Below are positions 9,506 through 53,707 of a stretch of 64,000 nt of DNA, piece after piece. Where the stretch lies: NCBI RefSeq assembly GCF_036321535.1, contig NC_087436.1, positions 7,378,001 through 7,442,000 on the forward strand. The letters are read 5' to 3'. The first letter of the stretch is position 1; each line of letters begins with the position of its first letter. The translations under genes were made by a program, and so were the position numbers. The DNA comes from Camelus dromedarius. Taxonomy: Eukaryota. The notes beneath the pieces are model-generated. The model had not been told where the DNA came from. It saw only the letters and a program-made list of their open reading frames with translations, and ran no database searches.

Positions 9506-9963
9506 TTTGTCTCCCTGCTTCTTCACATCAAGTCAGCCTCATCTCCACTTCTTTTTTGAAGACTTCCTCAGGTCCCGCAGGTTGACAGGTCTTCCTCCCG
9601 CCGCCTTTTAGTTCTTAAAAATCTGAACGCTGCTCCACGAGTTTATTGGGCACCTGATTTGAAAAAAAAGAGAAAAACCTGCTTCTCGACTGTCTTGTAC
9701 ATTTCACCTGTTTTAATCATGGTTTCCCAGGTCGACGTTAAGTTCCTTAAAGGCAGAGGCTGTATTTTAAGCTGAATGAATGTCAGCAAGAACACTCCAT
9801 CCTCATCTGGGTAGGAAATAGGTTCTCAGTAAACCCTTTTTGAGTGGGTTAGTGGCTGATTGTGGAGGGTTTCTCAATTACGGGCATAAGAGTTAAAAAG
9901 GTGAAAATCAACGATATTTTTGTTTTGATAGTTGGACCTTCCTTTGGAAAAATAAAATGACAG

Positions 9964-10080
9964 ACAGATGTGTTTCTTCACAAGGCAACTCTGTGTTATT
10001 GGTACAGCAGGCTGAGGATTTCCAGTGGTGGTGATGTCTACACCTGGTGGGTTACAACTCACCACTGGATGTACTGAGAA
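9964..10080 (+). repeat. Left arm of 117-bp inverted repeat with internal hairpin
   Basis: Aligns without gaps to the reverse complement of 10910-11026 at 90/117 identities (hand count). Confidence 0.95.
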
Positions 10081-10909
10081 CACATGGGCAGAAACTCTTC
10101 ATTCCAAGCGACCTTTTTGTTACAAGAGTGATAAACTGTGCTTTCATTTGTATTTTTCTGGTTCGCTTTATTTAATTTCTTTTTCTTGTGTTAAAGAGCT
10201 CTTACGGACGCGTCACTTAAATAAATGATTCCACTGAGGAACAAGTTTAGGGTAAGGATGATCTAATTAATTTCACTCTGACTGCTAGTTGTGGTTAATT
10301 TTTCTGAAACCTCGTTATGCTTGTGGTCTTCCCGCACCTTTCAGTAGTTGGCTACATACTGGTTTTTTTTTTTTTTCCCTTCTAATAATTTTTGTACAGA
10401 TTCAGTCCACCTCATCAGGGCAGAATCTGTTCTTGCAAATACGTGTGTACCCCGCTGTGCTGGGGACCCTAAATACACAGATTGGCGTTCCAGCCTGAGC
10501 TGAGACAAGGCAGAGCTGAGCAATGAACAGTACACCTTCAGAGGAAAGTGCCAGAAGGCTAATCCCTTATTTCATACTCAATTTGCATTTCATAATAGTC
10601 CTCTGCCCTTGCGTGTGTATATAAACGTTTCCCTTTTCAAATGCTTTCACGTTATAAGCTTATTTCACCCTCTTTGGTATTTTGTTCCATTGGTTCCTGA
10701 CCTTTTATGATAACAGTGCCTCAGGTTGATTTTATAAACTACACATGACACTTGTAATTCAGTTTCTGTTATCCTTTGTGTCAGAGCAGTTTTAAATAAT
10801 CCTTTTATAGGAGAATTTTGCTTTTGAAAAACCAAACACCATTCTTCTCAGTTTTATAGTTCAGAAGGTTTTCTGTAGGCTTTTAAGTATCTTTAGCGGT
10901 TTATAAATT

Positions 10910-11026
10910 TTCTCAGCACATCCAGTGACGGGTTGTAACCCACCAGGGTTAGACATCACCGTCACTGGAAGTACTCAACCTGTTGTAGCCTCAATACCAA
11001 GTTGCCAACCAAAGGGACACATTTGT
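10910..11026 (-). repeat. Right arm of 117-bp inverted repeat with internal hairpin
   Basis: Reverse complement matches 9964-10080, e.g. 'cctggtgggttacaac' and 'cactggatgt' are shared. Confidence 0.95.
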
Positions 11027-11129
11027 GTACCACCTGTCTGCTCACCTACCTACCTGCCTCTCACCTCCAATGACTCCCGGGGCCGGGAGATGGAGTAGAT
11101 GGGACCCTGCTTGTCAAGCGTTACATGCA

Positions 11130-13355
11130 TCTCATTTTCCTCCTTCCTCATGGCAAAATCTCTGTTTCTTTGAAATTTGCAACCTCACTGCCCACAACTT
11201 CCATCAAACTCCCGACCCCTCCTCATTCACTGAAAAATCTAGCTCCCAGCTCCTGCAGTCTTTCTCTCTAGTCTCACCACACTCACTCTTCATGGTCAAT
11301 TCCACATTCACATGGATGATCCAACCACATGCTGGCCTTCCACGTCGTAACTCTGCTCATTTCCAAAGATCTGTTCTCCACCGACCTCGGTCGCGTACTA
11401 CGGCAACCCCTATTCTTCCACTTCACGTATCCTGGTACTTTCCGATTCCAAAACTCTTTGGATCCAGTCAAAACCTCGCATCCATTTTTATCTTCTATCC
11501 TCCTCTTACTGTTGCTTCCTTCACATCCATCAGAGAGTCCACAGTTCAGTTTTCTGCAACAATCGCAACTTCTCTGCCTCTTTCTTCCTCTATTTTCTCA
11601 ACTGTCAAAATTCCAGACTTGGTTTATACCAAATTTTTCACCTTTTCTGTGGCTTCCTTGGAAAAGCTAAGTAATTTATTTTTAAATAAAAATCATACGA
11701 CACTGTATGGTCTTTACAGTAAATGGTATTTTATACTCTTTATTTGTAAATAAAATTTTACAAATAAAATTTACAAATTTATGAACGTGTGTGCTGTCAT
11801 TTTTGGGTGGGGGTAAAATTTATAATAAACTTGTGTTTGAGATATATTTGCTTAGTTTTTTTTTTTTTCCTGGAGAGTTTAACAAATGTTGTCAAACATT
11901 TGCCAGTACAGTACTGCTAATATACATGTTACACAGAGCATATCCCAAAAAAGACCTCTTATTCCGTCTTCGCTGCCCTCCCCCAATCTTCCGCATCCTG
12001 GCAAATGGTGTAATCATGCTATCTCTTGGAAAATACTAAAATCTGGTAGTCATGCTTGGTTACCCCTTTTTCTTGTTTTTTACATCCAAACAATCAAGTA
12101 TGTTATTTCTACTTAAAACATAAATTACTCAGCAATTCAACTGTCATCATCTTAGTCCAGGGCACCTTTATTCATTGCTTAGACCATTGGAAAATGCTCA
12201 AACTAGACTCCATCCTTCTAGTGTTTTTCACCCACTGTGGTGATTTTTTATTTATTTTTTTAATGTGAATCAGATCATGTCAGTTCTTTCCTTAAAACAC
12301 CGCTGTGACTTCTCATTGCCTGTCATAAGAACTCATGCCTTACTTAGTCAGATGCACTTAGGCCGCGTGACTCTTTTTCTTGTCACAAAATATAACAGTG
12401 ATGTTATAAAAAGTCCTTCTTTCGAAGACTGCTGATACACAAAGGATACGCCGGAGATGATTATTCAGAAATGAGGCCTTGCTGATGTGTCCCTATAAAA
12501 AAGGGTAAGATCTTGCCAAGCCTGCATTAAATATTGGAATTCACAAATTTACTCCTTTTCTACTGCTCAGGTTGGAAATTTTCAGCTGCATTCATGTTGA
12601 ACAGCATACACTTCTCCAGTTTTCCCTTGGCTTAGACTATTTTTGGCTGCCTATAGCAGAAAGGTGAGTTTTTCACCAGAAGTCATGTTAGAACACCTTA
12701 TATTTGGGGTTTACTTGCTCTTTTTGCAGAGATAAAAGCACAGAGCTGGCTTTGGAACATGACGTGGGGTGTGTGTGTGTGTGTGTGCATGTGTGTGTGC
12801 GCGTGGTGGCATGCATGTGCACATGAGCAAGAGAATGAACACAAGTCTCTCATGCACAACCTTCCATGATAAGGACCCTGCTAACCACACCTATCTGGCT
12901 TCTTGCAACACTCTTCTTAGTATCTGACTCCTCCTTTTTTAAAATATAAAGTTTGGGTTCTTTCAAGGGTCTTTCACTTGATACTATTTACTCTCTTTGT
13001 CTAGAGGAGAAAAACGGAACATTCTTTCCTCCATTCTTGTACACCTGGTTCTTTATCTTTCAGATAATAGTTCCAATATCACCTTCTCAGAGAGGCTTTC
13101 CCAGACCTCCACACTTAAAAGAACCTCCCCTGACACCCACATTACTACCAATCTATCATCTCATTTGTTTCCTTTTAAATTGTGAAATTATTTCCATGGT
13201 TTACCTGTGGTATGTCTATTTTCTGCGCCGCACTACAGGCTTTATGAGGGCAATGATGTGGTCAGGACTACGCACCAGAGTGTTCCCCAGGGTTTACGAC
13301 GGACCTTGCATATGGCAGGTCATCAACTTAAAATTGCTGGGTAAGAGAATGAGTG
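11130..13355 (+). mobile_element. Fragmented L2 LINE, from endonuclease-domain remnant to 3' end, interrupted at ~12325-12830
   Basis: 'ggtcaattccacattcacatggatgatcca' resembles the APE-endonuclease GDFNIH motif region; L2 3'-region motifs 'cagatcatgtcagttc', 'tatcaccttctcagagaggctttccc', 'ctttatgagggcaatg'. Confidence 0.75.
12769..12804. repeat. (TG)n imperfect microsatellite
   Basis: 'gtgtgtgtgtgtgtgtgtgcatgtgtgtgtgcgcgt'. Confidence 0.85.
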
Positions 13356-19979: not shown

Positions 19980-20350
19980 CCACTCCCCGCAGGTGTTCCC
20001 CGCAGGGTGGGTCTCCATCCTTCTCCAAGGAAGATGAGGCGGGCCGGCCCCGAGGTCTCGGGGGCCGCAGCACCTTCGGGTCTTTCTAAAGACCCTGACG
20101 GAGCACAGGCAGCCTTTCATGCCCGTGCTCCGGGACGTTTGCTAGTTACTCCGCCCAGAGTCGAGGCTTTGCTTTTGGGCGGCATTTTTTGGGAATATAT
20201 GAAATGAAGTCTGTGGGCCTTTAAGATCCTCAGGAATCCCTGTGTTTTCCCTCCACGTCCCCTCCCCGCGGCTGCTGCCACGCAGACGGGCTCTTCCGCT
20301 CACCTGCTGGGAGCTGTGGCCGCTGGTTGGGCTGGCCTCCCTCCCGATGC
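19980..20350. promoter_or_regulatory. Small CpG island-like element
   Basis: About 23 CpGs in ~370 bp of GC-rich sequence within an otherwise CpG-poor window; kB-like GGACTTTCCC ~19840-19849 and GGGGAATCC ~19885 just upstream. Confidence 0.6.
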
Positions 20351-20390
20351 TCTGGCAGTTTTTGAGAGGATTTAGGGAGTGGTCAGTTAG

Positions 20391-20485
20391 TCAGTGGTCC
20401 AATCACCTGGGAAGCTTTTTAAAAACCCAGGCACCAGTGTCTATAAGAAGCTCCCTAGATTGTTCCAGAGTTCATGATCACAAGT
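20391..20485. mobile_element. MER5-like hAT MITE remnant
   Basis: 'cagtggtcc aatcacctgggaagctttttaaaaa...aagctccctagattgttc'. Confidence 0.5.
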
Positions 20486-20520
20486 AACTACTGCTCTACC
20501 TCAGTTCCATCTTACTTTTC

Positions 20521-20608
20521 CTTCCTTCCTTCCTTCCTTCCTTCCTTCCTTCCTTCCTTCCTTCCTTCCTTCCTTCCTTCCTTCCTTCCTTCCTTCCTTC
20601 CTTCCTTC

Positions 20609-20659
<51 letters not shown>

Positions 20660-20670: not shown

Positions 20671-21979
20671 CTGTTGTGTTAGTTTCTGGTGTTCAGCAGT
20701 GTGATTCAGTTACACACACATATTCTTTTTCATATTATTTTGTGTTATGGATTATTACAGGATATTGAATACAGTTCCCTGTGCTATACAGTAGGTCCTT
20801 ATTGTTTATCTATTTTATATATAAATAGTTTGTATCTGCTAATCTCAAACTCCTAAATTATCCTATCCCAAACCTGCTTTCCCCTTTGGTAACCAGAAGT
20901 TTCTTTTCTAGGTCTGTGAGTCAGTTTCTGTTTTGTAAATAAGTTCATTTGTATCACATTTTTACATTCCACATATAAGTGATATCATATACTATTTGTC
21001 TTTCTCTGTCTGATTTACTTCACTTAGAATGACAATTTCCAGGTCTATCCATGTTGCTGCAAATGGTATTATTTTATTCTTGTTATGCTTGTATAGTATT
21101 CCATTGTGTAAATATACCACATCTTCTTTATCCGGTCATCTGTTGGATGGACATTTAGGTTGTTTCTGAGTCTTGGCTATTGCAAATAGTGCTCCTGTGA
21201 ACATTGGGGTGCATGTGTCTTTTAGAGTTAGAGTTTTGTCTGGATATATGCCCAGGAATGGGATTGCTGGATTGAATGGCAAGTCTATTTTTAGTTTTTT
21301 AAGGAACCTTCATACTGTTTTTCATAGTGGCTGCACCAAATTACATTCCCAACAGTGTAGGAGGGTTCCCTTTTCTCCACACCCTCTCCATTGTTTGTTA
21401 TTTGTAGAGTTTTTAATCATGGACATTCTGACTGGTGTGAGGTGATACCTCATTGTAGTTTTGATTTGCATTTCCCTAATAATTAGGGATACTGAGCATC
21501 TTTTCATGTGTCTATTGGCCATTTGTATGTCTTAATTGGAGAAATGTCTGTTTAGGTCTTCTGCCAATTTTTTGATAGAGTTTTTTTGTTTTGTTTTGTT
21601 TTTTTTTGGTTATTGAGTTGTATGAGCTGTTTGTATATTCTGGAAGTTAAGCTCTTGTCAGTCACATCATTTGCAAATATTTTCTCCCAGTCTGTAGATT
21701 GTCTTTTTGTTTTGTTGATGGTTTTCTTTGCTGTGCAAAAGCTTATAAGTTTGATTAGGTCCCAATTGTTTACTTTTGCTTTTGTTTCTATTACCTTGGG
21801 AGACTGACCTAGGAAATCATTGGTATGATTTATGTCAGAGAATATTTTGCTTATGTTCTCTTCTGGGAGGTTTGTGGTCCCATGTCTTACATTTGTCTTT
21901 CAGCCATTCTGAGTTTATTTTCATGTCTGGTATGAGATATGTTCTAACTTCTTTGATTCACACGTGACTGTCCAGCTTT
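20521..21979 (-). mobile_element. 5'-truncated L1 (ORF2 C-terminal remnant plus 3'UTR)
   Basis: Minus-strand ORF 21322-21522 '[33 protein letters not shown]...[11 protein letters not shown]' is L1 ORF2p; TSD CATCTTA(C/G)TTTTC at 20508-20520 / 21980-21992. Confidence 0.95.
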
Positions 21980-29932: not shown

Positions 29933-30045
29933 TTTTTTTGGGGGGGGCTAATTAGATTGATTGATTTAATGGAGGGACTGGGGATTGAACCCAGGACCTC
30001 ACGCCTGCTAAGCAAACACTCTACCACTGAGCTATACCCTCCCCC
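29933..30045 (-). mobile_element. vic-1-type tRNA-derived camelid SINE
   Basis: Reverse complement of 'gggggagggtatagctcagtggtagag...gaggtcctgggttcaatccccag' (Pol III A/B boxes); TSD TAAATTTGG.AA on both sides. Confidence 0.9.
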
Positions 30046-34500: not shown

Positions 34501-34859
34501 AAACAGTGTGAAGTCTTCCCTACTCTGAAGAAGTTAAAATAACAAGTATTTCATCTTTGTTCTTTCCAGGTAGAGTGCTATTTGACTACTTTCATAGTAT
34601 TGCTGTAGGAGGAAGAAAACTAAATCACTTACCCAGGGGTGGTCCAAGAGCAAGTGACAGCTGCTTCTCCTACAGCATTGTGATGTCTCTTGCTAAAAGC
34701 TGGGGGACCAGTTGGAAGGATATGGTAGTAATTCACATGAGTATCCGTGTAGTCCTGAACAAAGTACAGGTTGTTAAAAGATAGCGTTACTTGAACTTGA
34801 TACATAATTGAACATAGTGAAGAATTAGCTAGAGATATTCCAAAGCTTCTGAATAGATC

Positions 34860-39622: not shown

Positions 39623-39790
39623 GGGGAAGGATATAGCTCAAGTGGTAGAGCACATGCTTAGCACTCAGGAGGTCCTGGGTTCAATCCCCAGTACCGCCTC
39701 CAAAAATAAACAAGCATAATTACCTATCCCCCCAAAATAAAGTAATTAAATAATACAATAATAAATAAATTAAAAACAAAAACAAAAAAC
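39623..39790 (+). mobile_element. vic-1-type camelid SINE
   Basis: 'ggggaaggatatagctcaagtggtagagcacatgcttagc...gaggtcctgggttcaatccccag', A-rich tail; ~20-bp TSD 39604-39623 / 39791-39810 (16/20). Confidence 0.9.
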
Positions 39791-47883: not shown

Positions 47884-48008
47884 TGGGGGAGGGTATAGCT
47901 CAAATGGTAGAGCACATGCTTGACATTCATGAGGTTCCCAGTTCAATCCTCAGCACCTCCTCCAGATAGAAATAAACGGATAAATCCAATTACCACCCCC
48001 CATTAAAA
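47884..48008 (+). mobile_element. vic-1-type camelid SINE
   Basis: 'gggggagggtatagctcaaatggtagagcacatgctt...gttcaatcctcagcacc'; TSD AAAGAGGA(C/A)CT(T/C)CA at 47870-47883 / 48009-48022. Confidence 0.9.
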
Positions 48009-53586: not shown

Positions 53587-53707
53587 TTTTGGGAGGGGGA
53601 GATAATTAGATTTATCTATTTATTTTAAGAGGAGGTACTGGGGTTTGAGCCCAGGAACTTGCATATGCTAAGCATACACTCTACCACTTGAGCTATACAT
53701 TCCCCCC
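53587..53707 (-). mobile_element. vic-1-type camelid SINE
   Basis: 'ggaggtactggggtttgagcccagg...ctctaccacttgagctatacattcccccc'; TSD TTAAACTT(T/C)CAA(G/C)CTTT at 53570-53586 / 53708-53724. Confidence 0.9.

Follow-up and report, generated by a model that had tools for sequence, protein, structure and literature searches.

Two homologous hairpins, each about 67 nt long, lie in the arms of a 117-nt inverted repeat and differ from one another by two adjacent compensatory base pairs. We hold with moderate confidence that they are the products of an old local inverted duplication of a quasi-palindrome, and that the copies have been decaying largely neutrally in the non-coding DNA of a mammal, to all appearances a camelid. 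RNA function is not needed to explain the compensatory pairs. The window referred to below is the whole stretch of DNA that was analysed, 64,000 nt in length, and the features within it that carry the argument are listed here.

9964..10080, + strand: left arm of the inverted repeat, 117 nt, from repeat detection and ungapped local alignment
10910..11026, - strand: right arm of the inverted repeat, 117 nt, from repeat detection and ungapped local alignment
10081..10909, no strand assigned: spacer between the arms, 829 nt, non-coding by the tests made
10012..10078, + strand: left hairpin, keeping 24 of the 27 pairs of the right copy, with a perfect core stem (10021-10030 / 10060-10069)
10912..10978, - strand: right hairpin, 27 pairs, with a UGGU tetraloop and an apical TAACCC/GGGTTA stem
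10028..10029, + strand: left copy, 5' half of the covarying pairs (GT), with partners at 10061-10062
10061..10062, + strand: left copy, 3' half of the covarying pairs (AC)
10961..10962, - strand: right copy, 5' half of the covarying pairs (AC on the - strand, C in a CpG; contexts GAC/ACG)
10928..10929, - strand: right copy, 3' half of the covarying pairs (GT on the - strand, G in a CpG; contexts CGT/GTC)

The inverted repeat is real and far beyond chance. Its arms (9964-10080 and 10910-11026) align without gaps and are 77% complementary, with 90 of 117 positions identical between the left flank and the reverse complement of the right. The local alignment of arm with arm scores 63; 200 dinucleotide shuffles average 13.1 (sd 1.3) and never exceed 18, and the top score among 49 other neighbouring block pairs in the window is 24. 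Repeat detection, in which the long pair is I1, also returns both local stem pairs (I5 and I6), and the stem strings reported by an earlier, sequence-only reading of this DNA stand where that reading had placed them: TCCAGTGGTG at 10021-10030 and CACCACTGGA at 10060-10069 in the left copy, TCCAGTGACGG at 10921-10931 and CCGTCACTGGA at 10959-10969 in the right. A 1,201-base stretch of the locus is complete (share of words 1.00) in 16 sequencing runs from one organism and five studies. Five of these 16 runs, from two studies, are not flagged as a possible source of the assembly, and the repeat arrangement is therefore not an assembly artefact. The arms differ at 27 of 117 sites (K2P 0.28), which amounts to approximately 0.14 substitutions per site per lineage. 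Within the arm, the hairpin region has diverged at half the rate of the outer region (11 of 69 sites differ, K2P 0.18, compared with 16 of 48, K2P 0.45), a difference with a Fisher p of 0.044 that is weakened because the outer-arm differences are bunched at 9979-9983 and 9998-10002 and are thus non-independent, probably representing fewer events than sites.

The two copies are very unequal as structures: the right copy is an outstanding hairpin and the left copy is its decayed homologue. Stretches of 81 nt (10005-10085 for the left copy, 10905-10985 for the right) were folded on both strands with RNA and DNA parameters, with 200 shuffles for each, and gave the minimum free energies (MFE) below.

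Right copy, - strand: RNA MFE -38.1 kcal/mol, z -6.07, 0/200 shuffles as good; DNA -20.4, z -5.81
Right copy, + strand: RNA MFE -31.3 kcal/mol, z -5.01, 0/200 shuffles as good; DNA -18.3, z -4.87
Left copy, + strand: RNA MFE -28.0 kcal/mol, z -1.53, 22/200 shuffles as good; DNA -12.8, z -1.09
Left copy, - strand: RNA MFE -22.9 kcal/mol, z -1.17, 25/200 shuffles as good; DNA -12.9, z -1.97

Folding each copy on both strands, which the sequence-only reading had proposed as a check, gives energies well below those of the shuffles for the right copy (z -5.01 and -6.07) and energies like those of the shuffles for the left (z -1.53 and -1.17). DNA parameters agree with the RNA parameters that the right hairpin is stable and the left no better than chance. 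In 15,980 folds of 80 nt covering both strands of the 64-kb window, the mean is -12.3 kcal/mol and the 1% and 0.1% quantiles are -27.5 and -36.6. The right hairpin ranks fifth in stability among all places in this set, and the left falls near the 1% quantile. The apical TAACCC-TGGT-GGGTTA stem that had been described is present in the right copy on the minus strand. An outward extension through a G:U pair, attributed earlier to both stems, occurs in the left copy alone, and there only past a 1x1 mismatch; in the right copy the corresponding pair (10/62) is C:G. Internal loops at alignment columns 5, 11, 23, 25 and 29-30 are common to both copies, and from these shared imperfections we conclude that the quasi-palindrome predates the duplication. 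The hairpin loops of the two copies are collinear, which rules out loop inversion as the origin of the stem change.

The compensatory changes themselves exist as described. When the right-copy fold (27 pairs) is imposed on an alignment of the left copy (+) with the right copy (-), comprising 73 columns (alignment A2), 19 pairs are invariant, three carry a one-sided change kept as G:U, two are changed on both sides and three are unpaired in the left copy. The two double-sided changes are adjacent and keep Watson-Crick pairing, with G:C versus A:U at columns 19/53 and U:A versus C:G at columns 20/52, which is the GT/AC to AC/GT exchange of the sequence-only reading. With only two sequences, the observed covariation was matched or beaten by 128 of 500 column shuffles, and it is accordingly without statistical weight. 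A neutral simulation, in which the right copy served as ancestor of two lineages evolving with a transition bias (kappa 4) and runs were conditioned on 12 differences in the 73 columns, gave at least two double-sided, pair-keeping changes with P 0.008, or 0.038 with tenfold CpG mutability; both values are nominal, as the pattern was chosen post hoc within 64 kb and the model is without multi-nucleotide mutation or template switching. The observed total of paired cells was reached or exceeded (at least 51 of 54) in 7.9% of these simulated runs, and in 8.8% of those with CpG mutability.

The identity of the changed sites provides a mutational route to one of the two pairs. At the covarying site the right copy has ACG/CGT and the left copy GTG/CAC, and the C:G to U:A change thus amounts to two CpG transitions on a palindromic CpG. 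Paired CpG decay is a fast and often self-compensating path, which leaves just the adjacent A:U to G:C change to be made by two ordinary transitions. Five stem changes are one-sided: three still pair as G:U and two, both transversions, break pairing, an outcome that is close to neutral expectation. All three G:U pairs favour one reading (left copy on +, right copy on -), which is the more stable strand in both copies. Since this favoured reading falls on opposite genomic strands, no single 1.1-kb transcript holds both hairpins in their better sense. That selection has preserved structure and not sequence, as the earlier inference implies, is more than these results establish, given the 128 of 500 shuffles, the nominal P of 0.008-0.038, the CpG origin open to one pair and the three pairs lost from the left copy.

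It would nevertheless be possible to read the hairpins as functional RNA or DNA stem-loops under selection, for example as a pre-miRNA-like or protein-binding pair born by inverted duplication, and this we consider improbable. In its favour are the two double-sided Watson-Crick-keeping changes (nominal neutral P 0.008-0.038), the lower divergence of the hairpin part relative to the outer arm (p 0.044), the right copy's z of -5 to -6 and its rank as fifth most stable 80-nt place in 64 kb, and the G:U pairs that favour the same reading in both copies. The stem of approximately 30-33 positions is also within reach of pre-miRNA size, and pre-miRNA hairpins, among them examples that arose out of palindromic repeats or inverted duplications, are comparable in their length (here about 67 nt), their stem of about 30 positions, their small internal loops and their G:U pairs, with two paralogous copies present at this locus. 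Set beside the usual pre-miRNA dimensions (roughly 60-70 nt in all, the stem covering about 33-35 bp), the right hairpin has 27 pairs over about 33 positions and z -6.07, and the left hairpin, at z -1.53, is equalled by 22 of 200 shuffles. Against selection stand the reliance on two sequences with a covariation score reached by 128 of 500 shuffles, a left copy that is short of three pairs and folds like shuffled sequence, the placement of the favoured reading on opposite genomic strands so that one transcript cannot carry both, and a pattern that was chosen post hoc and includes a CpG site as one covarying pair. Drosha substrates usually have a larger apical loop than the 4 nt present here. 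The more specific proposal of a lineage-restricted, structure-selected small-RNA gene pair (pre-miRNA-like or protein-binding), which would have arisen by inverted duplication tens of millions of years ago and be read convergently from opposite strands in the G:U-favoured sense, with the compensatory changes and slower divergence as footprints of selection, is in our view very improbable.

Rfam 15 at the gathering threshold returned four matches in the window, all of them tRNA-like, and none within 9900-11100. At E<=10 over 9800-11200 there were four weak matches, all at 10719-10901, far below the gathering score and overlapping neither hairpin. The search for a known RNA or miRNA family suggested by the sequence-only reading thus returned no Rfam match to either hairpin even at E<=10, and assignment to a known RNA family was dropped. 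The lack of an Rfam miRNA match, the apical tetraloop and the shuffle-like folding of the left copy all set the locus apart from known pre-miRNA hairpins. The sequencing runs listed with the stretch include none that is on record as RNA, and four rows are guessed to be RNA or have small shares. Two scans of metagenomes yielded no match to related sequence in public collections, viral contigs yielded no exact pattern match, and a protein collection queried with the open reading frame (ORF) across the right hairpin yielded no candidate.

Protein searches gave a similar outcome for the interior of the repeat. None of 15 long ORFs of the window matched Pfam at E<=0.01, and none of five ORFs in or beside the repeat, a set that leaves aside those overlapping 10409-10447, scored above the cut-off. 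Three of the ORFs scanned belong to the spacer.

10016-10228, + strand: spacer ORF, no Pfam match above cut-off
10504-10710, + strand: spacer ORF, no Pfam match above cut-off
10665-10847, - strand: spacer ORF, no Pfam match above cut-off

A sub-threshold Galactosyl_T match (E 0.13, 12.5 bits, cut-off 23) was found at 10106-10216 (+) in a spacer ORF and was judged to be due to chance, because a genome-wide search for the family (21 matches) did not include the locus.

The other serious rival, beside a selected hairpin RNA, is a decayed orphan DNA transposon. Here the whole 1,063-nt unit (9964-11026) would be a non-autonomous element with 117-nt terminal inverted repeats (TIRs) and subterminal palindromes, from a family too old or too rare to detect, and we regard this as unlikely while giving it real consideration. 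Miniature inverted-repeat elements (MITEs) and other non-autonomous DNA transposons resemble the locus in having a non-coding unit, here of 1.06 kb, bounded by long inverted repeats (117 nt), and the arms, like TIRs, would have started out identical. CAGTG opens the palindrome and may resemble some transposon ends. However, the genome holds no other copy of arm, hairpin or spacer, and the element would be a single occurrence without related copies. The genome searched was a 2.3-Gb assembly of 171 contigs, and all match counts are lower bounds. BLAST with either arm found just the two arms (two of two candidates), the partner having 80% identity over 97 nt (E 1.5e-16). Likewise, a 29-nt core pattern with up to three mismatches recovered only the two copies across the whole genome, and its reversed control recovered none. 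A stem-loop pattern matched the right copy and, on contig C2, one further palindrome whose loop is unrelated. Shorter patterns behaved like background, with 81 places versus 58 in the control for 20 specified bases at up to three mismatches, and 45 versus 27 for 19 specified bases at up to two. The six nearest extra matches have nothing in common with the arms beyond the seed (scores 14-21 versus a null mean of 9.1 from unselected windows). Among them are an exact 21-nt match on contig C37 and two one-mismatch matches, with scores of 19-21. Part of the spacer (10083-10405) is single-copy in the genome, and a covariance model of the hairpin, run over the window with filters off, found the two hairpins only, the next best hit having 13.9 bits and E 0.3.

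The remaining hallmarks of transposition are equally absent from the places examined. No target-site duplication occurs at the arm ends (9964 and 11026), where the flanks, ...AAAATGACAG and GTACCACCTG, have no common direct repeat; no transposase-like ORF was seen among the ORFs scanned (0/15 and 0/5 above the Pfam cut-off); and the viral contigs held no exact pattern match. The sequence-only reading had itself allowed that the hairpin might simply be the palindromic consensus of a known MITE, and the genome searches give no third copy. A MITE family of any size, as distinct from a very old or very rare one, is ruled out by the finding of only two copies in BLAST, pattern and model searches. 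Because the pair is real and unique in the genome, we prefer a local duplication to a pair of separate insertions from one family. Parvovirus hairpinned inverted terminal repeats (ITRs) of the AAV type were also considered and resemble the locus in shape only, with two inverted terminal copies that each fold on themselves. They differ in that the interior here is just 829 nt and the three scanned spacer ORFs (those overlapping 10409-10447 left out) hold no Pfam family above the cut-off. Terminal repeats of parvovirus type were rejected on the lack of a viral domain above cut-off in the scanned ORFs and of an exact pattern match in viral contigs.

The sequence-only reading had further proposed that the local hairpins and the long-range duplex of the two arms are mutually exclusive and could act as a conformational switch. 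Energies for the two states, with the local folds summed, are as follows.

RNA, + strand: arm-arm duplex -158.0 kcal/mol, summed local folds -73.9 kcal/mol
RNA, - strand: arm-arm duplex -147.5 kcal/mol, summed local folds -76.0 kcal/mol
DNA, + strand: arm-arm duplex -83.1 kcal/mol, summed local folds -39.0 kcal/mol
DNA, - strand: arm-arm duplex -80.0 kcal/mol, summed local folds -40.9 kcal/mol

The two folds do compete and are mutually exclusive, and the duplex is much the more stable, but competition by itself is no evidence for a switch, because the geometry of every palindrome-bearing inverted repeat brings it about. By these computed energies the long-range duplex would be the thermodynamic winner and the local hairpins at most kinetic intermediates. 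This raises the alternative that the arm-arm duplex in a transcript is the relevant structure, as a hairpin RNA (hpRNA) or endo-siRNA precursor, a substrate of ADAR or a promoter of back-splicing, with the local hairpins incidental or a kinetic "switch". The energy difference on both RNA strands (-158.0 versus -73.9 kcal/mol on +, -147.5 versus -76.0 on -) argues for it, as does a putative 3' splice acceptor in the spacer at 10364-10400 (+), where a T15 tract and pyrimidine-rich sequence are followed by ACAG, a likeness judged by eye. However, the locus has no annotated or detectable gene or exon (Pfam negative, no Rfam family), and a duplex of 77% complementarity is a poor one for Dicer-type processing. 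We consider this alternative very unlikely indeed.

An old local inverted duplication followed by largely neutral decay accommodates these observations with the order of events that we infer as follows. A segment of approximately 117 nt, already carrying an imperfect palindrome, would have been copied in reverse orientation about 0.9 kb away. The copies would then have drifted apart, the right remaining near the ancestral quasi-palindrome and the left losing three pairs. One compensatory pair may have arisen by CpG decay on both halves of the palindromic CpG, and the other by a second pair of transitions or by a short template switch that copied a 2-nt patch between the stem halves. A left hairpin no better than shuffles, together with the large divergence, is what is expected if at least one copy is unconstrained. 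Several observations count against the neutral reading. The double change is nominally unusual (0.8%, or 3.8% with CpG hypermutability), constraint or conversion could explain the lower divergence of the hairpin part, the right hairpin is near perfect (z about -6) with both of its CpGs surviving, and the three G:U pairs all fall in one, more stable reading (left +, right -).

The age of the duplication can be approximated from the divergence of the arms. Commonly quoted neutral rates for mammals are 1-2.2e-9 per site per year, and a K2P of 0.28 read against these rates puts the duplication at probably several tens of millions of years. With an age of tens of millions of years, orthologues should exist well beyond the camelids.

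The closest parallel for the compensatory pattern is found in the quasi-palindromes shaped by template switching, which is documented to create and repair stems and to introduce compensatory changes of several bases neutrally and in a single event (Mönttinen and Löytynoja, PNAS 2022, PMC8794818). The likeness lies in an imperfect hairpin with a multi-base patch changed on both halves and pairing left perfect, in ordinary genomic DNA and with selection unneeded. The caveat of the sequence-only reading, that template switching can perfect stems without selection, agrees with the neutral single-event changes documented there. The present locus differs in offering two paralogous copies only, and its pattern is compatible with template switching. 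A second difference is that CpG decay alone can explain half of the present change.

Were the hairpins under selection, the locus would show cleanly how local inverted duplication can give rise to a new hairpin-RNA gene pair in a large mammal. Its main value at present is one of caution: a functional RNA structure is only weakly proved by two paralogues that differ at two adjacent compensatory pairs when one of these pairs falls on a palindromic CpG, as CpG decay and template switching on quasi-palindromes give the same picture neutrally. Given aligned outgroups, the locus is a candidate case for how template switching maintains stems.

Several further elements of the surrounding sequence were recorded. 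Directly outside the right arm, at 11028-11066 (+), lies a 19-nt unit repeated 2.1 times and resembling TACCACCTGCCTGCTCACC; on the - strand this repeat includes GGTGAG/GGTAGG motifs resembling splice donors. Of the window's eight most stable local folds, four lie at 19985-20400, approximately 9 kb from the inverted repeat, in a G+C- and CpG-rich stretch that may represent a CpG island or promoter; a (TTCC)35 microsatellite follows at 20518-20659. At 21322-21899 (-), ORF translations resemble, by eye, the C-terminal part of LINE-1 ORF2. Copies of a tRNA-derived SINE were found at 29970-30042 (-), 39632-39693 (+), 47889-47964 (+) and 53629-53702 (-), with A-rich tails and tRNA-like heads that start GGGGAGGGTATAGCTCA, presumably of the camelid type. 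Finally, a long near-continuous hairpin of about 30 pairs at 34601-34680 (-), with no Rfam match at the gathering score, has an RNA folding energy of -39.7 kcal/mol, which makes it the third most stable 80-nt place in the window and more stable than both of the hairpins studied here.
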